From contig JADJAG010000012.1 of assembly GCA_016704325.1 (NCBI GenBank), positions 105,500 to 169,499 on the forward strand: a stretch of DNA of 64,000 nucleotides, written 5' to 3'. This document shows, piece by piece, positions 17,405 through 56,504 of the stretch (position 1 is its first letter; the number at the start of each line of letters is the position of its first letter). Below the pieces are notes generated by a model. That model did not search any database, was not told the origin of the DNA, and was given only the letters and a program-made list of their open reading frames with translations. The stretch is from Chitinophagaceae bacterium (GTDB taxonomy: Bacteria; Bacteroidota; Bacteroidia; Chitinophagales; UBA10324). Both the position numbers and the translations under genes were made by a program.

Positions 17405-17606
17405 TACATATGAATTGACAGCAAGAATAGGTGCCGTAAGTTCTGTTTCCTGAAATAAAATGGGTTCATATTGCCCTTTATGTTATATTTAATCAATATT
17501 TCCCGCCCATGAATATGTTTGGTGAAGAAAAATAAGCAAGCTGAAAGATGAAATTGCGAAGGCACGTTCGTCTAAGCATAAGTGCAGTCTGCTTATTGAT
17601 CTGGCG

Positions 17607-39369: not shown

Positions 39370-39834
39370 ATGAAAAACTTGGTACAACACGGGTTTCTTT
39401 TTCTGGCTTTTTGCCCTTCTTTGCTGCTACATGCGCAAACTCCTGATATTATCTGGAAAAAATGTTTTGGTGGCAGTAACATTGATGCGGCCTATTCCGC
39501 TGATCTCACCACTGACGGCGGATATATTATTGCCGGTGGCGCTCTCTCAAGTGATGGCGACGTTACAGTAAACAAGGGATCCTTTGATTACTGGATCGTG
39601 AAATCAGATGTTTCAGCTGATTTGCAATGGCAAAAATCTTTGGGTGGAAGCGGCGAGGAAACTGCCTATTCTATTCAGCAAACTGCCGATGGTGGATATA
39701 TTGTTGCTGGATATTCCTATTCGAATGATGGGGATGTTTCGGGAAATCATGGTGGCAGCGATTATTGGATTCTAAAATTAAATGCAGCAGGAGATGTAGA
39801 ATGGCAAAAATGCCTTGGGAGGATCGGCAGATGA
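39370..39834 (+). CDS. 58-aa-repeat secreted protein, 5' part (frameshifted)
   Basis: Signal peptide present. WKKCFGG.., WQKSLGG.., WQKCLG. The frame is lost at G-run 39817-39819 (GGG where GG restores LGGSADD). Confidence 0.75.
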   Translation: MKNLVQHGFLFLAFCPSLLLHAQTPDIIWKKCFGGSNIDAAYSADLTTDGGYIIAGGALSSDGDVTVNKGSFDYWIVKSDVSADLQWQKSLGGSGEETAYSIQQTADGGYIVAGYSYSNDGDVSGNHGGSDYWILKLNAAGDVEWQKCLGRIGR

Positions 39835-40933
39835 TGTGGCTTCTTCCATCCAGCAGACCTCTGATGGCGGATTTATTGTAGCAGGATATTCTTCTTCGAA
39901 TGATTGGGATGTAACAGGTAATCATGGTCTCTCTGATTACTGGATCGTGAAGTTAGATGGCGATGGAAATATATCTTGGCAAAAGTCGCTGGGAGGAGTA
40001 AATGATGATCAGGGAGCTTCCATTCAGGAAATTTCAGGGGGCGGGTTCATAGTTGCTGGGTGGTCTGGTGTTATAGGTGCCGCTGATTATTGGATAATAA
40101 ATTTAGATGCTGATGGAAATATTGTGTGGGAAAAGTCTTATGGCGGAACCGGTAACGACCAGGCAACATCAGTCAGGCAAACCAACGATGGCGGGTTTAT
40201 TGTTGCAGGACATTCTTATTCCACAGACTCGAACATTACCAACCAAGGTGGTGCTGATTATTGGGTAGTGAAATTAGATGCAGCAGGAAATTTAACATGG
40301 CAAAAATCATTTGGGGGATCTGATGAGGATGTTGCGAATGCCATTCAGCAAACTTCAGACGGCGGATTTATTGTTGCAGGAAAATCTGAATCAGATAACG
40401 GTGACGTTAGTCCACTTTATGACAAGCACGATTTCTGGATTGTAAAATTAAGTGCGGCCGGAAGTTTATTATGGCAAAAATCCTTGGGTGGAGACAAGGA
40501 TGATGTTGCATTTTCCATTCACCAAACTTCTGACAATGGTTTTATGGTTGCAGGCTGGTCTATTTCAACGGATGGGGATATTATCGGATCGGAACCTAAT
40601 GGTTCCCGCGACTTTTGGGTAGTAAAATTATCGAGCGATATTGAGTCAGGGATTGCCTCGTTAACAAACTCTTCAATTTCAGTTTACCCCAACCCTGTTC
40701 AAAACGAGCTCATCATTAACTTAACAATACCTGTGCATAAAGTTCGCATGCAGGTATGTGACTTGCAGGGAAGGACGATTAGCATTCCGAACAATTTTCC
40801 CAACTCATCAACTGCACAAAATAATACTGTGAAAATCAATACTGCTGAGTTGTCGAATGGATTTTACACGCTAAGAATTACGGATGAAAAAACCGGTGAA
40901 AGTAAAGTCACTAAATTTGTCAAGATGCAATAG
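39815..40933 (+). CDS. 58-aa-repeat protein with T9SS CTD (continuation of 39370)
   Basis: GGSADDVASSIQQTSDGGFIVAGYSSSNDWDVTGNHGLSDYWIVKLDGDGN... repeats. CTD is VYPNPVQNELII...GFYTLRI. The TTG 'start' is a track artefact. Confidence 0.75.
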   Translation: MGGSADDVASSIQQTSDGGFIVAGYSSSNDWDVTGNHGLSDYWIVKLDGDGNISWQKSLGGVNDDQGASIQEISGGGFIVAGWSGVIGAADYWIINLDADGNIVWEKSYGGTGNDQATSVRQTNDGGFIVAGHSYSTDSNITNQGGADYWVVKLDAAGNLTWQKSFGGSDEDVANAIQQTSDGGFIVAGKSESDNGDVSPLYDKHDFWIVKLSAAGSLLWQKSLGGDKDDVAFSIHQTSDNGFMVAGWSISTDGDIIGSEPNGSRDFWVVKLSSDIESGIASLTNSSISVYPNPVQNELIINLTIPVHKVRMQVCDLQGRTISIPNNFPNSSTAQNNTVKINTAELSNGFYTLRITDEKTGESKVTKFVKMQ

Positions 40934-41351: not shown

Positions 41352-41425
41352 TCCCTGAATACAGGGAAGCACTTTTTAGCGGAATCCTGTGATGTTTACG
41401 GCCTGCACAAGAGGGCATTTTTGTA
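41352..41425 (+). promoter_or_regulatory. Promoter cassette copy E
   Basis: tccctgaatacaggga, then 48 nt (..ctttttagcggaatcctgtgatg..), then catttttgta at 41416. Confidence 0.6.
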
Positions 41426-41472
41426 TGGTAATTTTTCACACAGCACTAAATACTGTACTAAAAACTGTTCTT

Positions 41473-43482
41473 ATGAAAACACGCACCATGCTTCTCGCCA
41501 TCTTATTCGCATTAAGTAATGCTTCTGCAGAGACTGCTCCTCCTTCCATCATTTGGCAAAAACCTTTTGGCGGTAATAAAGCGGAGGAAGCCCGCTTCTT
41601 ACAACTTACACCTGATGGTGGCTGTATCTTCACAGGGTTTGCCCGCTCCATCGATGGCGATTTAACTGATAATAAAGGAGCCGATGATTTATGGGTGGTG
41701 AAGTTGGATTCCAACGGCGCAATCCAATGGCAGAAAACATTTGGCGGAACAGGGGAGGAATGGGGAAGGCATATTCAGCTCACTTCCGATGGCGGATACA
41801 TTGTGGCAGGACATACTACCACTGCAAATGACTATGACGATGTAAAAGGCAACAACGGAGGATTTGATTGCTGGATTCTGAAGCTGACCAGTACCGGAGA
41901 ACCGGAATGGCAAAGATCACTTGGTGGTTCATCGCTCGACCTGGCATACAGGGTGCAGCAAACAGCCAACGGCAATTATATCGTGTTTGGCGGAACAAAA
42001 TCCACTGATGGAGATGTGACCGAAAAAAGTACCACGGATGCAGACTATTGGATGGCGATGTTAGACCCTGCCGGAAATATGCTGTGGCAAAAACGCTACG
42101 GCGGTAGTGACCATGAAGAGGGTAGCTCACTGGAATTGACCTCCGACGGCGGTTTTATCATCTCCGGATTTTCCAATTCAAATAACGGCACAGTTGCAGG
42201 CAATCATGGTGATTTTGATGCCTATATTATTAAAACCGATATGAATGGAGATATTCAATGGTCTAAATGCTATGGCGGAAGTGCTGAAGATGCTGCAAGG
42301 GATGCACGCCAAACAACTGATGGTGGTTATATCATAACCGGTTATACGAAATCAAATGACGGCGATGTAAGTGGAAAGCACGGCGGCCAGGATGCATGGG
42401 TAGTGAAAGTAGATGCCAATGGAGCCATTCAATGGCAAAATTCACTGGGAGGATCTAATTTGGAGTATGCATATTATGTTGAACAGGCTCCCGACAACAG
42501 TGGTTACCTGGTGGCAGGTCACAGCGGTTCTGAAAATGGAGATGCTACCGCCAATCATGGATTGTATGACTGCTGGGTGCTCAAACTAAACCTTGATGGC
42601 AACCTCCTCTGGCAGAAATCACTTGGAGGCGCAGAACAGGATTATGGCAGGGCCATTACCCAAACCTATTCCGGTGATTTTTTTGTGGCAGGGTCAACCA
42701 CTTCTATTGACGGCGATGTATCGGGCAAACACAATGGTCCGGGGTCATATGATGCCTGGATTCTGAAACTAACCGGTAATTGTGTTCAACAGGCTTTTTA
42801 TCTTGATAATGATGGCGACGGATATGGAGATCCTGAAGTTTCCATGCAAGCATGTACCGGGGCGACGGGATATGTTTCCAATCATACAGATTGTGATGAC
42901 AACAACTTTCATATTCACCCATTTGCAAGGGCCATTGAAGACGCATTGGCTTTTGATTGCGATACTGTTGTATTTGAGGATTTGGATGCAATCCTGCAGC
43001 ATTCAACTATTGCATTTAACACAGAATTACCTTTTCCACCGTTTAATGCAATTGTTGATTCTTCTGAATTAATTAATGATACAACAGTAACCGGCAATAG
43101 AAGTGCAGGAAAAAATCAGGGAGTAGTACGTGAATTGAAATCGAAATCGCAAATGGAAAGCGCACCTGGTCAAAATAGGAAGAGCCCCTTCCATCCCGAT
43201 ACGTTGGCATCGAAAGTCGCCTACAGTATGCAGATAACAGAAGTCTATCCGAATCCTTTTACCACATCAGCAACGGTTTCAATTTTAATACCGGTTGCAT
43301 CGCATCTGCAAATAACACTGGCAGACCTGAACGGGAAAGCACTGCAGGTAATAGCCGATGAATACATGGCAGCAGGAAATCATGAGATTATCATTCACCG
43401 TGCTTCAAAGAGTGCAGGCATTTATTTCCTGGTATTAAGAGCGAATGGACAAATGCTGACAAAAAAGTTGGTTATTGAATAG
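41473..43482 (+). CDS. 58-aa-repeat secreted protein plus MopE-like motif plus T9SS CTD (intact)
   Basis: Starts at MKTRTMLLAILFALSNASA (the track start 41389 overlies the cassette). WQK.FGG repeats. YLDNDGDGYGD...DCDDNNFHIHP. CTD is VYPNPFTTSATV...GIYFLVL. Confidence 0.8.
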   Translation: MKTRTMLLAILFALSNASAETAPPSIIWQKPFGGNKAEEARFLQLTPDGGCIFTGFARSIDGDLTDNKGADDLWVVKLDSNGAIQWQKTFGGTGEEWGRHIQLTSDGGYIVAGHTTTANDYDDVKGNNGGFDCWILKLTSTGEPEWQRSLGGSSLDLAYRVQQTANGNYIVFGGTKSTDGDVTEKSTTDADYWMAMLDPAGNMLWQKRYGGSDHEEGSSLELTSDGGFIISGFSNSNNGTVAGNHGDFDAYIIKTDMNGDIQWSKCYGGSAEDAARDARQTTDGGYIITGYTKSNDGDVSGKHGGQDAWVVKVDANGAIQWQNSLGGSNLEYAYYVEQAPDNSGYLVAGHSGSENGDATANHGLYDCWVLKLNLDGNLLWQKSLGGAEQDYGRAITQTYSGDFFVAGSTTSIDGDVSGKHNGPGSYDAWILKLTGNCVQQAFYLDNDGDGYGDPEVSMQACTGATGYVSNHTDCDDNNFHIHPFARAIEDALAFDCDTVVFEDLDAILQHSTIAFNTELPFPPFNAIVDSSELINDTTVTGNRSAGKNQGVVRELKSKSQMESAPGQNRKSPFHPDTLASKVAYSMQITEVYPNPFTTSATVSILIPVASHLQITLADLNGKALQVIADEYMAAGNHEIIIHRASKSAGIYFLVLRANGQMLTKKLVIE

Positions 43483-44067: not shown

Positions 44068-45330
44068 CTATTGCAAAACAATGTTTCCGTCTGCATCGGT
44101 TTTTATCAGGCACATCGTAAAAATGAAGGTGCCGGAATGTTCATACCCGCCAATCAGATACCCGCCATCTTTTGTTTGTTCGACGGACACTGCGGTAAAT
44201 GCATTGAATCCTTTGAATTCTCTGTGCCATTCTTCATTAAGATCCTTACCCAGTTTAAGCAGGTACATATGGTTGCTGCTTACCAGGTAGATATCTATCA
44301 TTTCGTTGGTGGTAGCCGACATAATGTAGCCTCCATCACTGGTCTCTGCCAGTCCTCCGGCATGTCCCAAGTTCATGAAATCGGAGTAAGATCCTGATGT
44401 ATCTGATAGATTCCCCTCCATATCAAGCTGCTGTGTGTACAATGTGCCAATCAGGTCACTGATATTCGTATTAGCATACGTGCTTTTTCCTCTGGAACCA
44501 AAGAGGATGATGGAGGATTCGGATTCGGTGACGATCATTCCTTTGGTACTTATAGATTCTTTTGTATCAGTCAAAAAGGTATGCCACAGCTCATCATAAT
44601 TATTATCTAACCTTAAACAAAAACTAATGACGGGATCGGTTTCCGTAACGTCTGCATTATAGGTGGAACCACTGATCGTATAACCTTTATTGTCTTTGCA
44701 GAGGCCTCTGGTCATAATCAGTTTCCAACCCGGTATATTAAAGTCAAATACGATAGGGCTCTTAGCAACTCCATTTTCTTCAACAGGTAATACAAAGGGA
44801 TAATATTCCTTTTTATCCTTGTTCTCGATGGTTCCGGCAATCAGCAAACTACCGGATTCCGCCCTCTCGAAAAGTGGAGGCATCAGTGGACCCGATACTA
44901 AATCAGGCACGGTATAATTCTTCAGACTACCCTCGATCACTATTCCTGACGAAGCATTAATCCTGCATACGCTGATTACAGAAGCAGCGGTACCTGTTGT
45001 ACCCACAGCCATCAGGATGGAATCTGATATTGATATTGATTTCACTGTACAATAGTGAAAAGCGGGAGAAAGTGGATTTTTCCAAATGATAGTTCCTTTA
45101 CTATCACACTTAATAATGAGTGGAGGATAGCTGTTATTTTCAGGAGGAAATCCATAGACCACAAAATTACCGTCTGCTAATTGGAAAGCGCCTCCGGTTT
45201 GATAGCTGGTGTCGGATGGAAACATACGCAGGAACACGTTGGAAGGGGAAGTGAGATCAGTTGATTTGTTGCAACCCGTGGAAAGGATGCAGCATACAAG
45301 AGCAGGTAGCAGCCAGGGATAAAATTTCAT
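44068..45330 (-). CDS. Lipoprotein with degenerate 'DGGY' beta-propeller-like repeats (last gene of the STAND operon)
   Basis: Lipobox LSTGC. C-terminal ...ETSDGGYIMSATT...YLLKLGKDLNEEW...VEQTKDGGYLIGGYE...LIKTDADGNIV echoes the 58-aa repeat. Sits 3 nt from the upstream gene. Confidence 0.7.
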   Translation of the reverse strand: MKFYPWLLPALVCCILSTGCNKSTDLTSPSNVFLRMFPSDTSYQTGGAFQLADGNFVVYGFPPENNSYPPLIIKCDSKGTIIWKNPLSPAFHYCTVKSISISDSILMAVGTTGTAASVISVCRINASSGIVIEGSLKNYTVPDLVSGPLMPPLFERAESGSLLIAGTIENKDKKEYYPFVLPVEENGVAKSPIVFDFNIPGWKLIMTRGLCKDNKGYTISGSTYNADVTETDPVISFCLRLDNNYDELWHTFLTDTKESISTKGMIVTESESSIILFGSRGKSTYANTNISDLIGTLYTQQLDMEGNLSDTSGSYSDFMNLGHAGGLAETSDGGYIMSATTNEMIDIYLVSSNHMYLLKLGKDLNEEWHREFKGFNAFTAVSVEQTKDGGYLIGGYEHSGTFIFTMCLIKTDADGNIVLQ

Positions 45331-45333
45331 GGG

Positions 45334-46608
45334 TCAAAAATTTCCGTTTTTATTAGTCTTAATGATTTCAAGATAGAAATGATCGTTGCCGAAACTCTGT
45401 ATCATCGTTTGAATAGCATAATGTCCATCCGGCATAGCACAAAGGGAACCCAGGTAATCGTAATAATGATTCTGAACGAAGGAGACCGATTGAACCGTAA
45501 GATCCGGGTTAAGGCGTGCAATAAAAGAGCTTTGTTTGCCTACATAAAAGGTGCCGACTAATCGTATCGGGTTGAATCCAATCAGCAAGCCACCGTCAGT
45601 TGTCAGTACCAGGTCGGCGGCCATATTTTGGAAATCGTGTTTCAACCGTTCATAATCAATAACCTCACCGTCAGCATTAATCTTCAGAATGCGTGCACTG
45701 TTATCGTCATCTGAGTAAGCAGGAAGACCGTTTATATTGGGTAAATTATATTTTTGATTGTATGCACAGGCATAAAAATTATTATCTGCACTTGAAATGA
45801 TGTCGCTTGTAAAACAGTAATAGCCATGGTAGGTACCACTGTCTGGTCCTGTTGAAGTGTAACTGCTCGTTTCATGTACTTTGGTCCATAATGAATCCCC
45901 AAATTCATTCACCCTCAACAAGAAGAAGGAACTGATTAGCGGAACTTTTTCCTGGATACTGCCAATCATTATATAACCTGATCCGTGATCAACTTCAGCA
46001 CATCCGGTAACAGTAATTTCAGGGCCTTCCGGAAAATCGTAATGCTGCATCCAGATTTTTTGACCATCTTCTTTATTGATCTCGATTAAAAAGGCCATGC
46101 TTACTCTTTCACCGTTTTTTCTGTAAAAGACTGTTCCGCTGATCATATAGTTTCCGGCTGAATTTTTAAAGAGTTTCACTCCGAGCAAGTCTCTGAATTC
46201 CCCGGAAATAATACGTAACGGATAGGAACCGAACATTACGTTATTGGTATCCATAGTAAGCGTGATCATCCCATTTGAATAGGAGACCATCAGTATCCTG
46301 TTTTCGTCGGTGATCAGAAAATCATAGATGGTAAAATGAGTAAATTCTTTTCGCCAGATCAATTTGCCGTTTTTATCAAGCTTGATCAGTGCCGAACTGC
46401 TGTCTGCTTTATAGTCTGTGTAATTATAGGAACAATACAGATTATTGTCCTGATCAGGTCTGATTTTTCCCGGTAAGCGAGCAGGTGTATCGGAAATTAC
46501 CTTTATCCATTCTGCATCACCTGTATTTTGCCCTATGGGATCTTTTTTGCAGGAAATAAATATCAAAAATGGAATTGCAAAAAGGAACAGGATAATTAGA
46601 CGTCTCAT
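45334..46608 (-). CDS. Lipoprotein, beta-propeller-like
   Basis: Lipobox FISC. Motifs ..LIKLDKNGKLIW.., ..TTDGGLLIG... Sits 5 nt from the upstream gene. Confidence 0.65.
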   Translation of the reverse strand: MRRLIILFLFAIPFLIFISCKKDPIGQNTGDAEWIKVISDTPARLPGKIRPDQDNNLYCSYNYTDYKADSSSALIKLDKNGKLIWRKEFTHFTIYDFLITDENRILMVSYSNGMITLTMDTNNVMFGSYPLRIISGEFRDLLGVKLFKNSAGNYMISGTVFYRKNGERVSMAFLIEINKEDGQKIWMQHYDFPEGPEITVTGCAEVDHGSGYIMIGSIQEKVPLISSFFLLRVNEFGDSLWTKVHETSSYTSTGPDSGTYHGYYCFTSDIISSADNNFYACAYNQKYNLPNINGLPAYSDDDNSARILKINADGEVIDYERLKHDFQNMAADLVLTTDGGLLIGFNPIRLVGTFYVGKQSSFIARLNPDLTVQSVSFVQNHYYDYLGSLCAMPDGHYAIQTMIQSFGNDHFYLEIIKTNKNGNF

Positions 46609-46613
46609 GTTGT

Positions 46614-47627
46614 TTATTTTTTAGTCCTGTAAGCAAGCGTATAATAGGCCCCTGCATTTATTTGCAGGTTGTCCATTCTGAAATCATCGTCAATATAATA
46701 GTACTTGTAGAGGTTAATGTCATCCGCATACCTCGTTCCTTCTTTATTTACCAGGTCGGGAAAATAAGTGTACCGGACATTTGCAAATACGCCAAATGCT
46801 TTAATAGCATAACTCACACCGGCTGTTCCGAAGTAGCCGATATTGGTAGTGTTTCGCAAAGCCGTTCTGTTTACCAGATCAGTCTGATCATCACGGGTGG
46901 TAGTACTCAAGGCCTGTCCCAGAAAAGAAAAATCAACACCTGCCTGCAGGTAAGGCTTCAGGGAGCCTTGTAAAAAATAATACTTCAGCGATAGCGGCAA
47001 ATCAAAGTACGTGAGTTTTTCTTTGTATTGTACGGTGCTGTTGTTGATGCTGTCAAGCGTATGCGTGTACCTGGTTGTTCGCAGGCCGAATTCAAGTTCA
47101 ATCCACAAGTCTTTGTAGGCTCGTTTTTCTATTCCAATACCAAACTGGTAACCGGGGTTGGATTTATAACTTGCCAGTCCGGGTGCATCATCAGCGTGAA
47201 CCACAGAATACGTTTGCACCACATCAATGATGGGCCAGTTTATGCCACCGTTGATACCCAAAGCGAGGGTAGGTTCTGGCCTGAACTTTTCAAACAAAGA
47301 GGACAGCCTTGGATCATCCTTAAATTTATCAGGCGTATAGTTTGGGTTGACTTTCATTACGTCCATAGCGGAAGCATCAGCCGCTTCCAGGTTGTCAATG
47401 GATAGATAAGATAGTATCAGTAACTTGCCTGCTTCTATCCTGTCTTGCTTTGAAAGCGGACAACCTGCCAGTGTAGCATTCAATACCTTGATAGCGCGAT
47501 CAAAATTTCCGTCATCGTAATCGACTCCCGCACTTTTTAAATTCGCTATGCAGGTATCTGTTTGTGCCCGTGCGAAATTATAGTGCAATACCAGTATAAT
47601 AATTAGTAGTGAAGCTACCCGAAGCAT
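46614..47627 (-). CDS. Outer-membrane beta-barrel protein with N-terminal TPR-like helical region
   Basis: Signal peptide MLRVASLLIIILVLHYNFARAQ from ATG 47627. Helical N-domain. Then alternating-hydrophobic strands (LALGINGGI, YQFGIGIEK, WIELEFGLR, YLQAGVDFSF, GYFGTAGVSYAI, GVFANVRYTYF, LQINAGAYYTLAY). Confidence 0.6.
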   Translation of the reverse strand: MLRVASLLIIILVLHYNFARAQTDTCIANLKSAGVDYDDGNFDRAIKVLNATLAGCPLSKQDRIEAGKLLILSYLSIDNLEAADASAMDVMKVNPNYTPDKFKDDPRLSSLFEKFRPEPTLALGINGGINWPIIDVVQTYSVVHADDAPGLASYKSNPGYQFGIGIEKRAYKDLWIELEFGLRTTRYTHTLDSINNSTVQYKEKLTYFDLPLSLKYYFLQGSLKPYLQAGVDFSFLGQALSTTTRDDQTDLVNRTALRNTTNIGYFGTAGVSYAIKAFGVFANVRYTYFPDLVNKEGTRYADDINLYKYYYIDDDFRMDNLQINAGAYYTLAYRTKK

Positions 47628-47829
47628 GAAGGAGCCACAAGCCGTATACCTTATATACAATACTGAAATATTTTGACTTGTATGGTCCATATCGTATTTC
47701 AAGATTTGCTAATGATCAATTATATCCTTCAGTTTTTAGTAATCTCTAAAAACCGGCTCATTTACTACTTCCTCATTCTTTTCTCCTATCGGTTAAGAAT
47801 GAAGATTTTTTGGAGCTGCTTAAATTAAA

Positions 47830-50679
47830 CTATTGCAGTTCAGGTTTTAATTTTTTGTAAGGTTCATTCGATCCGATATACGTGTTCCATTCTTCCGTAG
47901 TGAAGTTGCGGGTGATTTCATTCAGCAACAGGGTGCTGAGGTGTTCTGTTTTTAAATCAAATTGCCTGATGGCGTTATCAGCGCATGCAACAAAGACCTT
48001 TCCATCAGGAGAAAGCGTAAGTGCCAGCACTTGCCGGTTGATATCCTTTATTACAATAGGTTTCAAAGCAAGGTTGGCAAGATTATAGACATAGATTGAC
48101 CGGTTGCCAGATACAGAAACCAATACATTCAGGGTTTCATCAATGGCTATGAAATCGACACTATTAGTATTATCGGTAAGAATTTTTACGAGGTCTCCTT
48201 TGTGATTATAGAGATGAATTTTTCCATCAGAACTTCCGAAACCGAGAAAGTTACCATTGGTACTGTAGGTACCAGACTGTATTCTTGCCGGTCCATTATT
48301 TCCGATCAATTTCTTTGAACTGGAAGGAATGTGTTGCAAGTACATTTTGCCATCCTCGGTGCCAACAGCCAGTGTGTTTTTATCGTTGCTCATTCCAAGT
48401 GATTTAATACGGGTCTCAAATGGATATTTTTGCAGCGCTGTATTTTGTGACCAAACAATAACGGTGCTGTCACGTCCTCCCGTTGCAAACAGGCTTTCAT
48501 CATGGCTAAAGGCAGCATCACGCACCAAACCGCGATGACCCGTTAGGCGCGGAGAAACAATCTGCTTTTCTGAATCATAGAAGAGAATAGAATGATCTTC
48601 ATAAGCAGCAATGGCCAACTTTCCGTGTTGACAGAGATAGCCCGTATTCAACATCATGTTATTACCCGGTATTTGCAATGTCTTTTGCAAAGAATATTCG
48701 GTGGAAGAATACCGGGATAATGATCCGTCGATGCACAAAACAGCAATGCTCTTGCCTTCGTTATCAAAGGCAATGGTTTTCACTTCTTTTCTAGCCTGGA
48801 TAATAATCGGTTGAAAGCCCGTATCCATTTTTTTCAGGTTTTCATAAAGTGCACTATAAAGTTCAGGATCCTGTGTATTCCCGCCGTTTGCTTCACTCAG
48901 CAAATAGGATTCGCACGCTAACAATGCGGCAAGTTGTTTATCATTGGTAGCTTGAAGCGATTGAAAAGCAAGTGCCTGGCTTAATGCAAGCTGGCGCAGG
49001 CGATTTGCTTCCGACTGTGCGGAGTCTGCTTTCTGCCGTTGCACTTCTGCTTCACGTGTCTTCTGTTCGGCCACCTGCTTCTCCTGTAAAGCAATTTGTT
49101 GCTGGGCGATGGCAAACTCCGACTGCTCACTTGCTTTTAATGCTTCTTGCTCTGCAATTATTTTCTGTTCTCCGGCAATCTTTGATTGTTGCTCCGCATA
49201 TAGTTTAGCTTCTACAGCCTGTTTTGATGAAAGCAGTGCCAGTTCGTTTGATTTTTCCGCAAGGTCTTTTTGATTAAGGGCTTCCTGTGTTTTTTGACTG
49301 GCAATTTCCGTTTGTATCATAGCTTCATTACGTTGCCTGATGGAAAAAACTGTGAAGCCCGAGAGAATGATGATCAATGCAAGGCTTGCTCCCAGCGCCA
49401 CATTTCTTCGACGGTTTCTTTTTCTGCGAACGGTGCGTTTGCTTTTATCAATGAACTGTTTCTGTTCCGGATTTAGAAACAGCTTGTTTTCAAATGGTGC
49501 CAGGTATTGCAGGTCAGCATCGCCCAGCAGGATGGAACGTTTCTGAAAATCGTTGTAGCGGTTGATGATAAAGTGGCGCACTTCCAGCAACTGTTTTTCC
49601 ACCCAACTTATTTGGTCATAGATTTTTGCAGCCAATGCATCATGCCGTAATTCATACTTGCCGTTGTCATCCATTTCTTTAAGGATGCGAAGGTCAACGA
49701 ATTGACGAAGTTCCGGTTCTATGTCCTCCTGCGTCAGCTCTTTACCTAATGCCCTGGTAAAATCGATAATCTCAGAAAGAGACATCTGTTTTTTAGTGCC
49801 TTCATCAGAAACAAAAGATTTCAGGATGGCAAGGGTATTTTCCGGGCTTTTTGTTTTTGCAATTTGTTCATCCAGGAATTCCGCAAGCACATCAGTAATC
49901 TGTCCCGTGCGTTCCAGTAATGCTTCATTGAAAACAGGATGCGCAGGATCGGAAATCACAGCCTCTTTATAAAGTTTATCAAGATATACCTGCAGGTAGG
50001 TAAGCTCCACCGCCGATTTTTCACTGCCTAACCGTTCCAATACTTTTTCCGGAAAATTGTCAGCTACTTCCAGGTTGAAAAGGCCGGCTGGTTCGGTAAT
50101 CACACGCTTTGCATTGGCGCGTGTCATGCGTTCGATGTGAATACGGTTATTGAAAAAGTCAGGTATTTGATCTTCAAACCTGGCAATATGTTCAAGATAT
50201 TCCCCGCGAATGACAAATATGAATTTGCAGCTTAGTCCACTTCCCAATGCCTCATGAAGTGCTTTTACAAACTGTTCCATTTCGGCATCGGATCCGAAAA
50301 TGAATAACTCTTCAAACTGATCGAACAATAAGTAAACAGGTTTGAAGTAATCGAGGTAAACGGATTTGATATTTTGAGAGAGGGAATTCTTTTCTGACAA
50401 AGGCACCAGGGATAAGCCCACCAATGCTTTTCTTAAAGAATCGTTGATGTTGGCGCCACGCCTGATTAGAACCGGCATCCAGTCGGCATCCTGGAACTTT
50501 CCTGCGAGTCCGCACTGAATCAGGCTGGTCTTTCCTGTTCCGCTGGATCCGTATACCAGCAACAGGTTACTGTCGAATGTTTTGTAGTATAGTTCTTCCA
50601 CTTCCCGTTCGCGGCCGAAGAAGATATCGCGATCTTCGCTGGTATAAGAGTCGAGAAATTTGAAGGGGGTTTTCGCCAT
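47830..50679 (-). CDS. Membrane-anchored P-loop (STAND-like) NTPase, then TM helix, coiled coil and WD40 repeats
   Basis: N-terminus is PFKFLDSYTSEDRDIFFGREREVEELY. Walker A GSSGTGKTS (nt 50527-50553). Walker B VYLLFDQFEE. Basic stretch RRKRNRRRN followed by VALGASLALIIILSGFTVFSI (nt ~49339-49401). Q/E/A-rich coiled coil. C-terminal WD40-like repeats (..GHRGLVRDAAFSHDESLFATGGRDSTVIVW..). Confidence 0.8.
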   Translation of the reverse strand: MAKTPFKFLDSYTSEDRDIFFGREREVEELYYKTFDSNLLLVYGSSGTGKTSLIQCGLAGKFQDADWMPVLIRRGANINDSLRKALVGLSLVPLSEKNSLSQNIKSVYLDYFKPVYLLFDQFEELFIFGSDAEMEQFVKALHEALGSGLSCKFIFVIRGEYLEHIARFEDQIPDFFNNRIHIERMTRANAKRVITEPAGLFNLEVADNFPEKVLERLGSEKSAVELTYLQVYLDKLYKEAVISDPAHPVFNEALLERTGQITDVLAEFLDEQIAKTKSPENTLAILKSFVSDEGTKKQMSLSEIIDFTRALGKELTQEDIEPELRQFVDLRILKEMDDNGKYELRHDALAAKIYDQISWVEKQLLEVRHFIINRYNDFQKRSILLGDADLQYLAPFENKLFLNPEQKQFIDKSKRTVRRKRNRRRNVALGASLALIIILSGFTVFSIRQRNEAMIQTEIASQKTQEALNQKDLAEKSNELALLSSKQAVEAKLYAEQQSKIAGEQKIIAEQEALKASEQSEFAIAQQQIALQEKQVAEQKTREAEVQRQKADSAQSEANRLRQLALSQALAFQSLQATNDKQLAALLACESYLLSEANGGNTQDPELYSALYENLKKMDTGFQPIIIQARKEVKTIAFDNEGKSIAVLCIDGSLSRYSSTEYSLQKTLQIPGNNMMLNTGYLCQHGKLAIAAYEDHSILFYDSEKQIVSPRLTGHRGLVRDAAFSHDESLFATGGRDSTVIVWSQNTALQKYPFETRIKSLGMSNDKNTLAVGTEDGKMYLQHIPSSSKKLIGNNGPARIQSGTYSTNGNFLGFGSSDGKIHLYNHKGDLVKILTDNTNSVDFIAIDETLNVLVSVSGNRSIYVYNLANLALKPIVIKDINRQVLALTLSPDGKVFVACADNAIRQFDLKTEHLSTLLLNEITRNFTTEEWNTYIGSNEPYKKLKPELQ

Positions 50680-50685
50680 TTTTCA

Positions 50686-51720
50686 TCATGCTGTAACACG
50701 CGGAGAATCAAGAATGCTATTGATCATATCATTAAACTGCTGCAAAAGATCCGGGTAACTGCTTAATTGGGACAAGTCACATTTCTCCGTTACTTCTGTG
50801 CCTACATAATGCAGTTTTCCATATTGAAATTTGGTGTAAAGAAAAATGTCTTTCTTGATAGAAAACTTTTCCTTCTGGTCGATCACTTCTGTTCTTGTGT
50901 CAATTATAAGCGGCGAGAGATTCAGGTATTCATGAGGCTCATTAATGTCCTTGAGTAATAGCACGGCATTGCTGTCTGCAAATATTCCATGTTGAACTTC
51001 TGTGCCTTTAAAGTCAGAATCGGAACTATTCAATAAGTCCATCAGGTGATTGAAAGATGCATTGCGGTGTTTCTTTTTCAAAACATTGATCTGCCGAACT
51101 GTAACCAGTTTATAGTTGATGAAAAAGGAAATATGCTGCAGGATAGACGAAAGTTTTTCCTGGTATTCCACACAGCGCTTTTCAATCTCATCAGTAGTAA
51201 GGTTGATCTGGTAATGGCCGATTTCATTTCTTTCCGGTACCCAGAAATCAAGCAGTTCAAAGAAGTTATTGCTGAAGCAGGTACTCTTGCCCGTAAAGTG
51301 TGACGTTTGTGATTCTGTGAATACTTTGCAGATTGCCCTGATCAGCCATGAATAACTTCCGAGTGTGAGTTGGTTAAACCTGTTTTGAAACTGCAACATG
51401 AAGTCATCAGACAAAACAACCTTATTTTTCAACCGCTCTTCCCATAACTGCGCGACCAATACGAAGGAAAGGAATTGCATGGTTCGTTCAATGGTTTTAA
51501 ACACCTGGTCCAGTCTCCCGCGATCGAGGTTGCGCATGGAACCAGAAAATAGCCGGCGTAACTCCACACCAATTGGCCAGGGCAGATTACGAATGATGAG
51601 GTCGCCAAGTATCCTGGTATCCACTTCTTCATCCACTTCGTCAGCAATCAGGTATTTCTGTAATATAGGTTTGTGTTCAGCCATCCTGGAGAATACATCC
51701 CTGATGAGTAGCTCATTCAT
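50686..51720 (-). CDS. Hypothetical alpha-helical protein with Rx4H (HEPN-like) motif, first gene of the STAND operon
   Basis: The ATG at 51720 gives MNELLIRDVF (the track start 51753 is TTG). ERNEIGHY is at nt 51214-51231. Its stop is 6 nt from the NTPase start. Confidence 0.6.
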   Translation of the reverse strand: MNELLIRDVFSRMAEHKPILQKYLIADEVDEEVDTRILGDLIIRNLPWPIGVELRRLFSGSMRNLDRGRLDQVFKTIERTMQFLSFVLVAQLWEERLKNKVVLSDDFMLQFQNRFNQLTLGSYSWLIRAICKVFTESQTSHFTGKSTCFSNNFFELLDFWVPERNEIGHYQINLTTDEIEKRCVEYQEKLSSILQHISFFINYKLVTVRQINVLKKKHRNASFNHLMDLLNSSDSDFKGTEVQHGIFADSNAVLLLKDINEPHEYLNLSPLIIDTRTEVIDQKEKFSIKKDIFLYTKFQYGKLHYVGTEVTEKCDLSQLSSYPDLLQQFNDMINSILDSPRVTA

Positions 51721-51809
51721 AGGTTGATCCGATAATCCAAATGATGCAACCAATTTAGTAATAATATTTAGTATTTATTCTCAAAAGTTGACTGAATTAA
51801 AACTGGTTA

Positions 51810-51882
51810 GCCAAAAGTATAGCGGCGTTGCCAATAGGTTATCCCTGAATACCGGTATTTTGGTTATCCCTGAAATCAGGGA
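51810..51882 (-). promoter_or_regulatory. Promoter cassette copy G, oriented toward the minus-strand STAND operon
   Basis: Read on the minus strand: tccctgatttcaggga, then 47 nt (taacc aaaatacc ggtattca gggata ...), then tacttttg (plus-strand 51812-51819, a perfect TAnnTTTG). The spacer is 15/22 identical to the attttaccggaattctgtgatg block of the plus-strand copies. Confidence 0.6.
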
Positions 51883-52350: not shown

Positions 52351-54336
52351 ATGAGAATGTTTACAATACTGTTTGCATTATTAGTTGCTACTCATACTAT
52401 TTCAGGGCAGACAACAGCACCTGCCATACTTTGGCAAAAACTTCTTGGAGGAAATCTCGGCGAAGAGGCCCGTTATATACAATTAACTCCCGATGGTGGT
52501 TGTGTATTCACCGGCTTTGCACGATCTGCCAATGGTGATGTGACAGTTAACAAAGGAGATGATGATTTATGGGTTGTGAAATTAGATGAGAATGGTGGAA
52601 TACAATGGCAGCATACATTTGGCGGTACCGGCCAGGAGTGGGGCAGACACATTCAGCTAACTGCTGATGGCGGTTATATCCTGGCGGGACACAATACTAC
52701 CGCAAATGAAAATGGAGATGTACATGGCAACCAGGGAGGTTTTGATTTCTGGATTTTGAAATTGAGCAACTCCGGGCAATTGGAATGGCAGCAATCACTT
52801 GGTGGCTCATCCCTCGACCTGGCATACAGGATACAACAAACCGCAGACGGTAATTATGTAGTATTTGGCGGAACAAAATCTATTGATGGAGACGTAACAG
52901 GAAAGATTACTTCGGATGCAGATTATTGGTTGGTAAAGCTGGATCCGGAAGGTAACATCTTGTGGGAAAAGACAATCGGGGGTATTGGACATGAAGAAGG
53001 AAGCTCTATTGAATTAACCTATGATGGAGGCTTCATACTCTCTGGTTTTTCTGATTCCAAAAATGGCGATGTAACAGGCAATCACGGCGATTTTGATGCA
53101 CACCTGGTAAAGACAGATAGTGACGGAAACATACAATGGTCTAAGTGTTATGGTGGAATATACAATGATGCAGCAAGGGATGCCCGGCAGACTGCAGACG
53201 GTGGTTATATTATGGCCGGTTACACGAATTCCGATGATGGTGAGGTGATTGGCAATCATGGCGGACAGGATGCATGGGTGGTGAAATTGGATGCAGATGG
53301 ATTTATTCAATGGCAGAAACCACTTGGCGGCAGTTCATTGGAATATGCATATTATGCTGAGCAGGCACGCGATAATAGTGGTTATTTAATAGTCGGACAC
53401 AACGGATCTGATGATGGTGATGTTACCGGCAATCATGGATTATATGATTGCTGGGTCGTGAAACTTGACGCGGAGGGTAATCTGATTTGGCAAAAATCCC
53501 TGGGAGGATCGGACCAGGATTATGGCAGGGCCGTCACCCAGACCTATACTGGCGATTATTTGATATCCGGTTATGCAAGTTCAATTGATGGAGATGTTTG
53601 TGGCAAGCATGGAGGGCCGGGATCAAAGGACGCCTGGATTGTTAAACTGCAGGGTAATTGCTTACTTCAACCCTATTACCGGGACAATGATGGTGACAGC
53701 TATGGGGATCCGGCTGTTTCAACAAATAGCTGTGTACCCCCTCCGGAATTCGTGTCTAATAGTTCAGACTGCAATGATGACAGTACCCATATTCATCCCA
53801 ATGCAGATGAACTTTTCAATGGAATTGACGATGATTGTGATGTTGACATTGATGAAGGATGGCGTACTCCAATTAATAGCAGTGTACCTGTTCCTGGTAT
53901 AGAAAACATACAGATGTATAGTAATTCTATTGTTAATTTATTTGGAGCTGTTATGGATTCTGTGGATAGGAATGAAAAACAAGCACTTTCCGGTGTAGAA
54001 GAAAATAAAACGGATAACTCACCGAATCATTTTTTCGACAATTCCAGCTTGACCGAAATAATGAATGCGGTAGTACTGCAATCAATAAACATCTATCCCA
54101 ACCCGGTAACCACAATAATGCTGCTGTCCTTTTTCTTAGATAAGCCAATAGTTGTTGAAATAGCGCTCTTGAATGCCATTGGCAAACCAATAGCTACTAT
54201 CACAAAGGCTGAGTTTGCTGCAGGCAACCATGAATTTAACTTTAATCGCGGATCACTTGATACGGGAATCTATTTCCTGCAACTGAGAACTCATGACGGT
54301 GCAATTATGAAGAAAATAATTTTGGCACAGTACTAA
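52351..54336 (+). CDS. 58-aa-repeat secreted protein plus MopE-like motif plus T9SS CTD (paralog of 41473-43482)
   Basis: Signal peptide present. Collinear with the 41473 protein (ILWQKLLGGNLGEEARYIQLTPDGGCVFTGFARS...). YRDNDGDSYGD...DCNDDSTHIHP. CTD is IYPNPVTTIMLL...GIYFLQL. Confidence 0.85.
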   Translation: MRMFTILFALLVATHTISGQTTAPAILWQKLLGGNLGEEARYIQLTPDGGCVFTGFARSANGDVTVNKGDDDLWVVKLDENGGIQWQHTFGGTGQEWGRHIQLTADGGYILAGHNTTANENGDVHGNQGGFDFWILKLSNSGQLEWQQSLGGSSLDLAYRIQQTADGNYVVFGGTKSIDGDVTGKITSDADYWLVKLDPEGNILWEKTIGGIGHEEGSSIELTYDGGFILSGFSDSKNGDVTGNHGDFDAHLVKTDSDGNIQWSKCYGGIYNDAARDARQTADGGYIMAGYTNSDDGEVIGNHGGQDAWVVKLDADGFIQWQKPLGGSSLEYAYYAEQARDNSGYLIVGHNGSDDGDVTGNHGLYDCWVVKLDAEGNLIWQKSLGGSDQDYGRAVTQTYTGDYLISGYASSIDGDVCGKHGGPGSKDAWIVKLQGNCLLQPYYRDNDGDSYGDPAVSTNSCVPPPEFVSNSSDCNDDSTHIHPNADELFNGIDDDCDVDIDEGWRTPINSSVPVPGIENIQMYSNSIVNLFGAVMDSVDRNEKQALSGVEENKTDNSPNHFFDNSSLTEIMNAVVLQSINIYPNPVTTIMLLSFFLDKPIVVEIALLNAIGKPIATITKAEFAAGNHEFNFNRGSLDTGIYFLQLRTHDGAIMKKIILAQY

Positions 54337-54651: not shown

Positions 54652-56049
54652 ATGAAACAATCATTGCTGGAACACTTTCACTCTAAACAGGAAAGCATCG
54701 AAGATAGAATTGATAAGGGAAAGGCGTTGCGTAAGAAGATTCCCCGTTTGCTGCATGCTGATTATAAGCCTTCATCGGACCGAAGGGATCCGGTGTCCAT
54801 TTTGGAGAAGCAGGCCGAAACAAGGCTTCCTGACCTGGTGCCCATTCGCCATGCGCGTATGCTCACCTCCCCATTTGCTTTTTTGCGTGGCGCAGCAGCT
54901 ATCATGGCAGGCGACCTGGCAACCGGAGTTAACACCGGAATCACAGTGCAAGCTTGTGGTGATATGCATGTAGCTAATTTTGGCGTATTCGCTTCGGCAG
55001 AGCATAACCTGGTTTTTGGGATCAATGATTTTGATGAAACACTTCCGGGCCCGTGGGAATGGGATTTAAAACGCCTGGCGACAAGTGTAGTAACATCCGG
55101 GAAATTCCTGGGCGCAAATAAGCAATTGTGTAAAGACGCGGTGATGGAGACGGTGAGGTCCTACCGGGAACGTATTCGCAAATACGCATCGAAAGGAAAC
55201 CTGGAACTATGGTATTCAACTATTGGTGAAAAAGATATCCTTGATGCATTGTCACCCTCTGCCCGGGAAGGTGCTGTTAGGATGATCAGTAAAGCGCGCG
55301 GCGCAACTCATATGCAGGTGTTGGGTAAACTCACCGACCTGGTCGATGATCAGTTCCGGTTACGGGTAAATGCACCGTTTATTGTCAGGGAAGCACATAC
55401 GCAGGCAGGCAGGCCGATCAATGAGGCCCTGGAAATGTTTTTAGCGGCTTACTTTAAGTCACTTTCTGATGACCGGAAGCATCTGTTGAAACACTATCGT
55501 ATTGAAGATGTTGCCCGTAAAATTGTAGGAGTTGGCAGCGTAGGTACCCGTTGCTGGATAATTTTTCTTACCGGCACTGATGAAAATGATCCTTTTTTCC
55601 TTCAATTGAAGGAGGCACAGCCTTCCGTACTTGAACCATATCTTTCAAAAACGATTTACGAAAACCAGGGACGCCGTGTCGTGGAAGGCCAGCGGCTGAT
55701 ACAGGGAGCTCCCGATATTTTTCTCGGATGGGGGGAAATTGACGGCATACATTTTTATGTGCGTCAGCTAAGAGATATGAAAGGAGGTGTAGACTTTGAT
55801 CCGGAAAAGGTAAAAGTGAAAAACCTGCCGCAATATGGTGCCCTTTGCGGGTGGGCGCTGGCATTGGCACATGCAAAATCAGGAGATGCAGCATTGCTTT
55901 CCGGTTATTTGGGTAGCTCAGATGAAATTGATGAAGCAATAACTCAATACGCATTCGCATATGATGAACAGAATGAGAAGGACTTCAAAGTCTTCAATGA
56001 GGCCGTCTCCAGTGGAAGATTGAAAGCATCTATTGCGGAAGCGCAGTGA
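54652..56049 (+). CDS. DUF2252 family protein
   Basis: DRRDPVSILEKQAETRLPDLVPIRHARMLTSPFAFLRGAAAIMAGDLA...VQACGDMHVANFG. I recall this pattern as DUF2252. Confidence 0.75.
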   Translation: MKQSLLEHFHSKQESIEDRIDKGKALRKKIPRLLHADYKPSSDRRDPVSILEKQAETRLPDLVPIRHARMLTSPFAFLRGAAAIMAGDLATGVNTGITVQACGDMHVANFGVFASAEHNLVFGINDFDETLPGPWEWDLKRLATSVVTSGKFLGANKQLCKDAVMETVRSYRERIRKYASKGNLELWYSTIGEKDILDALSPSAREGAVRMISKARGATHMQVLGKLTDLVDDQFRLRVNAPFIVREAHTQAGRPINEALEMFLAAYFKSLSDDRKHLLKHYRIEDVARKIVGVGSVGTRCWIIFLTGTDENDPFFLQLKEAQPSVLEPYLSKTIYENQGRRVVEGQRLIQGAPDIFLGWGEIDGIHFYVRQLRDMKGGVDFDPEKVKVKNLPQYGALCGWALALAHAKSGDAALLSGYLGSSDEIDEAITQYAFAYDEQNEKDFKVFNEAVSSGRLKASIAEAQ

Positions 56050-56504
56050 GCAGGTAATGAGTTGATTTTCTTTCAACACTATGTTTCTGTAAGAGATAGA
56101 ACCTTTCAAAAAAGAATAAACGCGAAGTCGCTAAGTCGTCAGGTTTTTTTGGAAGCATTGATAACTCATTGCTTGTCGCTTATGATCAATTAGTGTAGTT
56201 AATCCGTACTCGCGCTCCCTCAACGTTTTATTTTTTTTGTAGTATTACAAGTACTTATAATTTGTGATGTGAACCATATTAACTACTGAAGGTTTCTCAG
56301 CATACAAATTTATTAATACGGCAACTATCGAGGCGATATTCACTTTAATGGAGAAGCTTTTATTCCACGAAGTTGTATGATTCATCCTATGTCTTATGAT
56401 GGAGGTCATTGCTACAGTTGATGCCGATCACATTTTATCGGAAAGGCCTCGGTTAATTTTGCCTGTTACCTTATAACAAGGTGAACTTAAAAAAAACTAT
56501 AGTT

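Follow-up and report, generated by a model that had tools for sequence, protein, structure and literature searches.

What is the function of five neighbouring genes of a Chitinophagaceae bacterium whose predicted products would reach from the cytoplasm to the outer membrane? The genes, named g1 to g5 in the order of transcription, are minus-strand open reading frames (ORFs) spanning positions 44068-51753 of the window, a 64,000-nt stretch of GenBank assembly GCA_016704325.1 (contig JADJAG010000012.1, positions 105,500 to 169,499). A preliminary description of this DNA proposed a trans-envelope signalling or defence operon of five co-oriented genes with gaps of 3-6 nt within the pairs 1-2 and 3-4-5, and the ORFs and their spacing match that layout (g1-g2, 6 nt; g2-g3, 127 nt; g3-g4, 5 nt; g4-g5, 3 nt). 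Our analysis suggests, with a probability of about one half, that the locus encodes an outside-in, trans-envelope receptor of the STAND (NLR/Apaf-1-like) type that would activate a HEPN-like effector; an immune role for it is a more tentative proposal. Of the original idea, the linkage and the predicted trans-envelope layout have held up; a part in defence stays tentative, with little defence-island signal.

All five ORFs are genuine genes rather than chance reading frames, since g1, g2, g4 and g5 have homologues (more than 2,500 for g2, about 1,100 for g1, and those of g4 and g5 in related operons) and g3 matches a Pfam family above its cut-off. The nearest relatives of the window proteins are from Chitinophagales metagenome-assembled genomes (MAGs), all of uncultured organisms. 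When species genomes, 185,579 in all and one for each species, were scanned with the g1 alignment, 174 relatives were confirmed; the best 80 of these 174 are all from Bacteroidota MAGs (individual loci are cited below as L001 and so on) and come from Chitinophagales, Cytophagales/Cyclobacteriaceae, Flavobacteriales, Saprospiraceae and Bacteroidales including Rikenellaceae. Sixty-four loci have 1.5 kb or more of DNA downstream of g1; in 57 of them the very next gene is an nSTAND1 gene, and two of the exceptions show the inverted order. The pairing is still seen in homologues down to E ~1e-30 (P0340/L093-94), and g1 relatives fused to a CHAT domain or to a helix-turn-helix (HTH)-cyclase module also lie upstream of a gene for an nSTAND1 protein with a polybasic stretch, a transmembrane (TM) helix and a WD40 domain. 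g1 and g2 very probably form a functional pair.

The third gene appears to belong to the same unit. Among the partners with a single propeller (900-1000 aa), 24 have enough DNA downstream, and every one of these, across several orders, is followed by a g3 homologue, whose ORF in 11 cases has a 4-nt overlap with the g2 stop. Further g3 homologues are found in L089, the HTH-cyclase variant, and in L096, the CHAT variant. g3 never follows GldM-type, double-propeller or other non-single-propeller partners. That gene order recurs across genomes answers the synteny check put forward in the preliminary description, and g3 is probably a partner of g2. Given the conserved g1-nSTAND1-g3 order and the patchy occurrence of g4 and g5 homologues, we regard g1-g2-g3 as the core and g4 and g5 as lineage-specific accessories.

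The g3 product was called an outer-membrane beta-barrel from the outset, and residues 145-313 do match Pfam OMP_b-brl_2 (E 8e-14; 52.5 bits against a cut-off of 27), preceded by a weak TssQ-like TPR match at residues 53-123 and by a signal-peptide-like N-terminus, MLRVASLLIIILVLHYNFARA/Q, as read from the sequence. A conserved cysteine pair in the N-domain of g3 was considered as a marker of periplasmic location and dropped, the alignment being too weak. The two lipoproteins of the preliminary description retain their lipoboxes, read from sequence as MRRLIILFLFAIPFLIFISC/KKD in g4 (…FLIFISC/KKD, with an atypical F at -3) and …CCILSTGC/NKS in g5, and prove to be clade-specific and to stand outside the conserved core. 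They are paralogous to one another (22% identity over 368 aa, E 2e-7). Pfam, NCBIfam and PADLOC scans of both gave nothing usable, g4 showing weak DUF5122/BamB-like matches only, and searches of PDB sequences with g3, g4 and g5 returned nothing significant (BamB hints for g4 at E 0.2-1). Homologues of g4 follow g3 in L009 and L011, and those of g5 occur in the operons of L009, L001/L012, L010 and L089; the C-terminal repeats of g5 resemble proteins encoded in the flanks of the operon that are cargo of the type IX secretion system (T9SS) (E 1e-7 to 1e-10). About half of the g3 loci continue with tightly coupled lipoproteins (gaps of -20 to +16 nt), which in other clades are of different kinds, for example two of ~630 aa in Cyclobacteriaceae loci. 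We favour, with some reserve, a role for g4 and g5 as accessories of the system. The ~630-aa lipoproteins directly following g3 in L019, L022, L024, L029, L030 and L037 carry acidic residues soon after the lipobox cysteine (GC-LNEE, GC-HQEE), which recall the surface-export signal of Bacteroidota; g4 (C-KKDP) and g5 (C-NKST) of the window are without a clear signal of this type.

The central component of the locus is g2. Its residues 5-352 match Pfam PF20703 (nSTAND1) at E 7.8e-41 (141.4 bits against a cut-off of 27.1), and the motifs on which a STAND assignment had first been based are all located in it: FFGREREVEEL, GSSGTGKTS (Walker A) and LLFDQFEE (Walker B). Walker A (G44-S52) and Walker B (D120-E124) are intact and invariant across 44 homologues (G44, S46, G47, T48, K50, S52, D120, Q121, E123 and E124). 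The AlphaFold2 (AF2) model has an alpha/beta core, helices to about residue 400 and then a seven-blade WD40 domain, and the top Foldseek match of the full-length model is Apaf-1 (3shf, E 2.6e-23). The nucleoside triphosphatase (NTPase) does not fall into a housekeeping family, an outcome that would have counted against the preliminary description: it is an nSTAND1 protein whose best structural match is full-length Apaf-1. Two features set g2 apart. Its arm and repeats are kept apart by an inserted TM helix and coiled coil, a departure from the STAND norm; and the protein begins directly with the NTPase at residue 5 and has no fused N-terminal effector, the candidate effector being encoded by a separate gene.

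The inserted segment reads RRKRNRRRN-VALGASLALIIILSGFTVFSI (residues 418-447), with a hydropathy peak of 2.37 at residue 427. A polybasic run followed by one strong hydrophobic helix (at about residues 425-495) is present in all 65 distinct nSTAND1 partners, and the charge bias is marked: counted over the 15 residues on either side of the helix, the flank before it has on average 7.0 K+R and a net charge of +6.2 and that after it 3.0 K+R and +0.7, the N-flank exceeding the C-flank in K+R in 64 of the 65. In g2 paralogues the part that follows the helix consists of GldM_3rd and GldM_4th domains, joined in some of them by TPR (E as low as 1e-23); in GldM/PorM of the gliding/T9SS motor these two domains are periplasmic. 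No GldM domain was found in the post-TM region of the window g2 itself at E up to 1. Since the invariant Walker motifs imply an NTPase that must see cytoplasmic NTP, and since there is a single TM helix, the C-terminal half of g2 should lie outside the cytoplasm. On the positive-inside rule and domain analogy, it is very likely that the NTPase is cytoplasmic and that the coiled coil and the WD40 domain are periplasmic, which agrees with the helix and the topology given for this protein in the preliminary description.

Beyond the helix, alanine occupies one heptad position in 92% of cases over residues 446-565 in the 44 homologues, the other positions being mostly polar, an Alacoil-like pattern. 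AF2 predicts helices at residues 404-472 and 481-576 with low confidence over 460-488. A straight helix of ~125 residues would measure roughly 18-19 nm, about the width of the periplasm. The region varies among homologues by insertions (35 insert columns). Homology of this coiled coil to GldM D1 was also entertained and abandoned, being without Pfam support. The C-terminal domain matches Pfam WD40 and many other beta-propeller families; its model is of high confidence (predicted local distance difference test, pLDDT, >90), has a seven-blade strand pattern and is paired by Foldseek, at target-normalised TM-scores of 0.8, with WDR5, G-beta and a WD40 domain from Thermomonospora.

Median identity to the window proteins over 25 operons falls along the presumed path from cytoplasm to envelope, from 60% for g1 and 51% for the NTPase to 33% for the TM helix with the coiled coil and 27% for both the WD40 domain and g3. 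Judged by these values, the predicted cytoplasmic module is constrained and the putative envelope-facing parts diverge together.

The nature of the cytoplasmic output hinges on g1, a protein with no match in Pfam, NCBIfam or PADLOC. Its ~1,100 homologues are 56-83% identical, and its conservation, with a mean column identity of 68%, is far stronger than that of its partner. E174, R175, N176, H180, Y181 and Q182 are invariant, ERNEIGH being constant in 46 homologues; the stretch ERNEIGHYQ contains RNxxxH and fits the conserved Rx4-6H motif of the HEPN superfamily. In the AF2 model (pLDDT 80; predicted TM-score 0.85), helices occupy residues 12-213 and strands residues 215-317, and the motif precedes helices 178-182 and 187-207 of the all-helical part. 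A PDB sequence search with the g1 profile gave nothing significant. A profile search of 1.84 billion representatives retrieved 826 relatives in three groups: standalone proteins of ~300-350 aa, proteins with an N-terminal CHAT protease domain, and proteins in which an AraC-type HTH, alone or together with a class III cyclase, is N-terminal. Counted over representatives clustered at 50%, RNxxxH is kept in 40 of 53 standalone proteins, often as [ILV]RNxxxH, and in 0 of 73 with an N-terminal extension of at least 60 residues, CHAT, HTH and cyclase fusions included. Because the motif is retained in standalone proteins and lost in effector fusions that still precede nSTAND1-TM-WD40, the pattern reads as effector displacement, in which the g1 scaffold would be an NTPase-coupled output module that keeps its own catalytic-looking site only where no effector is attached. 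Forty-two distant standalone relatives yielded 12 matches over five HEPN Pfam families (best E 3.8e-4), all below gathering scores; the four most recurrent, every one of them a HEPN family, were RiboL-PSP (5), Csm6 (2), Swt1 (2) and MAE_28990 (2). As these matches are sub-threshold and the g1 model has no significant structural neighbour, a divergent HEPN fold is no more than likely, and the chances that g1 is a HEPN RNase seem to us evenly divided. The HEPN-like Rx4H partner of the preliminary description is thus supported indirectly, by the pattern of motif retention and loss and by the convergent sub-threshold family matches, g1 itself having no HEPN match.

Taken together, these features are suggestive of the following mechanism. 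g2 would be anchored in the inner membrane by its one TM helix with the NTPase facing the cytoplasm, and a rigid Ala-heptad coiled coil of ~17 heptads would hold the propeller across the periplasm, where we infer that it touches the periplasmic TPR-like domain of g3; in this lineage g4 and g5 may take part in the propeller-barrel contact. An outer-membrane or periplasmic event, for which ligand binding, envelope damage and phage adsorption are candidates, would alter that contact; the coiled coil and TM helix would relay the change inwards; and the membrane-tethered NTPase would switch in a nucleotide-dependent manner or oligomerise. The assembled NTPase would then activate g1, whose RNxxxH site most likely would cleave RNA, with growth arrest or abortive infection as the outcome. 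In sister systems the same scaffold would instead bring a CHAT protease, a DNA-binding domain of the AraC type or a cyclase acting on nucleotides.

A number of observations weigh against this reading. With respect to the HEPN assignment, g1 itself has no HEPN profile match in Pfam and all family matches of its relatives are sub-threshold, Foldseek matched its model to nothing in PDB or BFVD at E <0.1, HEPN structures included, and the motif falls within a loop modelled with low confidence (pLDDT <50 at residues 176-178). The AF2 monomer is broken at residues 473-480, which makes a straight rod uncertain, and the gap of 127-200 nt between g2 and g3 permits separate transcription of g3-g5 in this genome. 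With respect to defence, PADLOC-DB v2 returned only noise for the five proteins (E ~0.01; mad8, HEC-02B) and no catalogued system, and on 95 flanking genes it found a few MADS, generic TPR/cyclase and weak 'CorA-like' matches, which amounts to little defence-island signal. The strength of g1 conservation is unusual for a defence effector, and the AraC HTH fusions and the TPR-PP2C and TPR-cyclase neighbours resemble regulation rather than suicide. These last points would suit a system of the same layout and direction that serves ordinary, non-immune signalling. Gene expression or second messengers would then respond to a cue from the surface, from nutrients or from envelope stress, in the manner of the FecA-FecR-FecI and SusC-anti-sigma pathways, and g1 would be no toxin but an adaptor or a regulator that binds or processes RNA. 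Close g1 relatives that carry a fused AraC-type HTH, some with a class III cyclase as well, do still precede nSTAND1-TM-WD40-barrel genes, TPR-SpoIIE/PP2C genes adjoin 19 of 81 loci and TPR-cyclase genes close eight operons, and a tblastn search of plasmids and phages gave no match to g1. We nevertheless hold such a role to be rather unlikely, given a rare and patchy spread (the 174 relatives noted above, the best 80 all in MAGs), several copies per genome, tandem arrays of sensor paralogues with swapped ectodomains, the CHAT protease of sister systems, the loss of RNxxxH exactly where another effector is fused and the fast divergence of sensor and barrel. Features of this kind are typical of conflict systems, in which cyclases and PP2C occur as well.

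The signal might also run the other way, the NTPase, informed by g1, gating an outer-membrane complex through the rod as an NTP-driven analogue of TolA, TonB or GldM; its target would be the g3 barrel with the lipoproteins or, for GldM-type paralogues, the T9SS/gliding ring. Such control could account for the paralogues that end in GldM domains 3-4, for a multi-TM neighbour with a weak GldL_N match (E 2e-4) at nine loci, for a T9SS C-terminal-domain protein within the L001 operon and T9SS cargo genes around the window operon, and for an Ala/Glu/Lys/Gln-rich helix that recalls TolA domain II. It is improbable nonetheless: STAND NTPases are switches and not motors, the system is far too rare for a core part of T9SS, and the GldL_N match is below threshold and in a TM region; moreover, the modules that are swapped (HEPN-like, CHAT, HTH, cyclase) are all cytoplasmic outputs, as would be expected only if information ends in the cytoplasm. 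A last alternative would reduce the system to g1 and g2 and take the barrel and lipoprotein genes for unrelated neighbours belonging to the surrounding surface-propeller family. The long g2-g3 gap with its promoter-like site, the repeats that g4 and g5 share with flanking T9SS-cargo genes and the restriction of g4 and g5 homologues to a few clades can be cited for it; opposed to it are the 24 of 24 occurrences of g3 after single-propeller partners, with their 4-nt overlaps, its recurrence in the distant HTH and CHAT variants and the coupled lipoproteins that follow it in about half of the loci. We consider this alternative very improbable as a whole; it is essentially excluded for g3 and possible in part for g4 and g5.

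The receptor that we favour, which we infer to signal from the outside in, shares its parts with several known machineries. In FecA-FecR-FecI and in the SusC-like/anti-sigma/extracytoplasmic function (ECF)-sigma pathways of Bacteroidota, an outer-membrane barrel acts through a single-pass, periplasmic-sensing protein on a cytoplasmic output; the barrel-to-cytoplasm chain proposed here is similar and some sister systems of g1 end in a DNA-binding domain, whereas the locus has no TonB-dependent receptor, anti-sigma or ECF sigma factor, its transducer is a STAND switch and its barrel is small (OMP_b-brl_2). GldM/PorM and TolA/TonB have, as is predicted for g2, a single N-in TM helix and an elongated periplasm-spanning part, and GldM domains 3-4 occur in g2 paralogues; unlike GldM/PorM, g2 has in place of a short cytoplasmic tail a large NTPase, and the window encodes no proton-channel partner. 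The HEPN families Csm6, RiboL-PSP, Swt1 and Apea carry RNxxxH in a helical domain as g1 does, while g1 has an extra beta domain of ~100 aa and the family matches are sub-threshold and confined to its relatives; inactive copies of HEPN superfamily effectors are said, after work by Anantharaman and colleagues in 2013, to serve as adaptors. With Avs, bNACHT, CARD-NLR and Apaf-1 the locus shares the combination of sensor repeats, STAND switch and effector, and g2 would by analogy likewise be expected to undergo ligand-induced oligomerisation. Avs, bNACHT and CARD-NLR proteins, however, are soluble cytosolic receptors of phage proteins with fused N-terminal effectors, and g2, with a predicted extracytoplasmic sensor and a separate effector gene, is not the single soluble polypeptide with fused effector and cytosolic sensor that defines Avs and bNACHT.

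Propellers in the periplasm are in themselves familiar from TolB and BamB, and the periplasmic TPR/WD40 protein PorE is known (PMC7192894). Cytosolic conflict systems, from which the nSTAND1 family was defined (Kaur, Iyer, Burroughs, Aravind, eLife 2021, PMC8195603; PMC7159879), have in common with the locus the NTPase family, WD40/TPR repeat sensors, separate or fused effectors (CHAT and others) and paralogue diversification; the published architectures considered here are cytosolic and carry effector-associated domains (EAD) or death-like adaptors, whereas g2 has no N-terminal adaptor, has a conserved TM helix between NTPase and sensor and is partnered by a HEPN-like protein and an outer-membrane barrel. 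The main text of a 2026 census of prokaryotic STAND proteins does not contain the words 'periplasm' or 'membrane' (PMC13581612). A single line elsewhere speaks of 'transmembrane STAND ATPases' next to proteases associated with Pepco (bioRxiv 2025.11.14.688446 / PMC12642450); these ATPases show that TM-containing STANDs had already been noted, and differ from g2 in being protease fusions of Actinobacteria and cyanobacteria with no periplasm-spanning coiled coil, outer-membrane partner or HEPN-like partner. We found no description of the g1/nSTAND1-TM/barrel module in the STAND/NLR literature covered by our searches. The module is a variant of the STAND receptor kind and not a different kind of machine.

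The STAND/NLR literature consulted here treats bacterial STAND receptors as soluble cytosolic sensors of phage proteins; in this widespread Bacteroidota family a membrane helix splits the STAND switch, the sensor would reach the outer membrane, where it is paired with a dedicated barrel, and any of several modules (HEPN-like, CHAT protease, AraC HTH or cyclase) can serve as the cytoplasmic output. If the proposed reading is right, NLR logic extends to the cell envelope, and the system offers a tractable model for a conformational signal that crosses two compartments into a STAND oligomeriser. g1 also represents a new, highly conserved and unannotated protein family that is likely a new branch of HEPN, and the paralogues link STAND proteins to T9SS/gliding motor domains. 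Flavobacterium phages make use of the T9SS/gliding machinery as a receptor. It is conceivable, as a distinctly speculative extension, that these proteins are cell-surface pattern-recognition receptors, NLR-like switches that sense outer-membrane proteins from outside the cytoplasm and fire a cytoplasmic HEPN, CHAT or other effector upon contact with a phage or attacker; equally speculative is that they would do so before or at genome entry, with the GldM 3-4 paralogues as guards or decoys on the T9SS/gliding ring. Such receptors would give bacteria an equivalent of the plant 'guard' model and of immune receptors that span the membrane. Experiments are feasible, since Flavilitoribacter nigricans, a cultured species, has the CHAT variant, as do genomes named Haliscomenobacter sp.

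The loci vary considerably in composition. Eight contain two or three full-length nSTAND1 paralogues (with partial ORFs included, as many as four) that differ in their ectodomains and mostly follow a single g1 (among them L047, L053 and L076). Tandem g1 copies or divergent, back-to-back g1-nSTAND1 units are found in L038:627-5732, L034, L048 and L050, and at least two MAGs have two separate loci (CAWEYU01, contigs 6 and 7; DATKTA01, contigs 19 and 25). In the CHAT-g1-like variant of Saprospiraceae, Haliscomenobacter and Flavilitoribacter, the nSTAND1 protein is split into two overlapping genes (L090, L091, L095:10809-14382 and L096:10713-14881), one encoding the P-loop part and the other the helical arm, TM helix and WD40 domain; the first split gene of L096 has two nSTAND1 P-loop modules. 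The multi-TM protein with the GldL_N match, of ~293 aa (cluster 4), lies beside nSTAND1-TM paralogues that lack g3 (L021:5193-6074 on the minus strand, L025, L031, L038, L059, L066, L068, L070 and L076); together with the GldM D3-D4 ectodomains it hints at a GldLM-like pairing. A protein of ~518 aa (cluster 14), with no Pfam match and absent from the window, lies in or beside the operon at five loci (L001:14618-16180, L010:17592-19148 on the minus strand, L011, L018 and L053:11164-12660) and gives weak PADLOC 'CorA-like' matches (E 1.6e-7 to 2e-6). At L047:8393-10753 an AAA_14/DUF4143 ATPase and a RhuM-family gene stand amid an array of four nSTAND1-TM paralogues. Neither the TPR-SpoIIE/PP2C nor the TPR-cyclase genes have an adjacent counterpart in the window, whose sole, weak TPR-SpoIIE relative (17604-18662, plus strand; 22% identity over 354 aa) is 26 kb away and unlinked.

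The coordinates of the genes, domains and neighbouring features in the window are collected in Table 1. Alignment with homologues places the likely true start of g1 at M20 (ATG at 51696), and g3 probably starts at M26 (ATG near 47627), which would give the signal peptide MLRVASLL...ARA/Q and widen the g2-g3 gap to ~200 nt in this genome. The promoter-like site in that gap was found in a scan of the window, and g3-g5 may have their own promoter here. The pattern TAnnTTTG is not enriched in the window; a sigma-70 promoter/terminator scan, uninformative for Bacteroidota, gave counts near shuffle level, and an Rfam search of the whole window returned no match.

Table 1. Genes of the g1-g5 locus, domains of g2 and neighbouring features, in window coordinates.
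Feature	Position	Strand	Size	Prediction or remark
g1	50686-51753	-	355 aa	predicted cytoplasmic partner/output protein: helical domain and C-terminal beta domain
g2	47830-50679	-	949 aa	nSTAND1 NTPase, TM helix, coiled coil and WD40
g2 N-terminal part, aa 5-400	49480-50667	-		predicted cytoplasmic nSTAND1 NTPase with helical/winged-helix arm
g2 polybasic stretch RRKRNRRRN (aa 418-426) and single TM helix (aa 427-447)	49339-49428	-		predicted N-in/C-out
g2 Ala-heptad coiled coil, aa 448-576	48952-49338	-		putatively periplasmic; ~17 heptads
g2 seven-bladed WD40 propeller, aa 620-910	47950-48822	-		putatively periplasmic
g3	46614-47702	-	362 aa	predicted outer-membrane protein: signal peptide, N-terminal TPR-like periplasmic domain, C-terminal beta-barrel
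g4	45334-46608	-	424 aa	predicted lipoprotein, probably propeller-like; clade-specific accessory
g5	44068-45330	-	420 aa	predicted lipoprotein with 'DGGY'-type propeller repeats; clade-specific accessory
Possible Bacteroidota -7 promoter box TACTTTTG	51812-51819	-		upstream of g1; pattern match, weak positional hint
Secreted propeller-repeat cluster	24159-26264, 31083-32420, 35724-38579, 39370-40933, 41389-43482, 52351-54336, 56481-58595	+
DUF2252 protein (E 2e-135)	54652-56049	+		between T9SS-cargo genes; appears unrelated to the operon

The operon sits on the opposite strand within this cluster of paralogous secreted proteins, which have the 'DGGY'-type propeller repeats in common with g5 and g4. 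Several of the cluster proteins end in a T9SS C-terminal sorting domain (Por_Secre_tail), and two of the ORFs (39370-39834 and 39815-40933) overlap and may be a single frameshifted gene.

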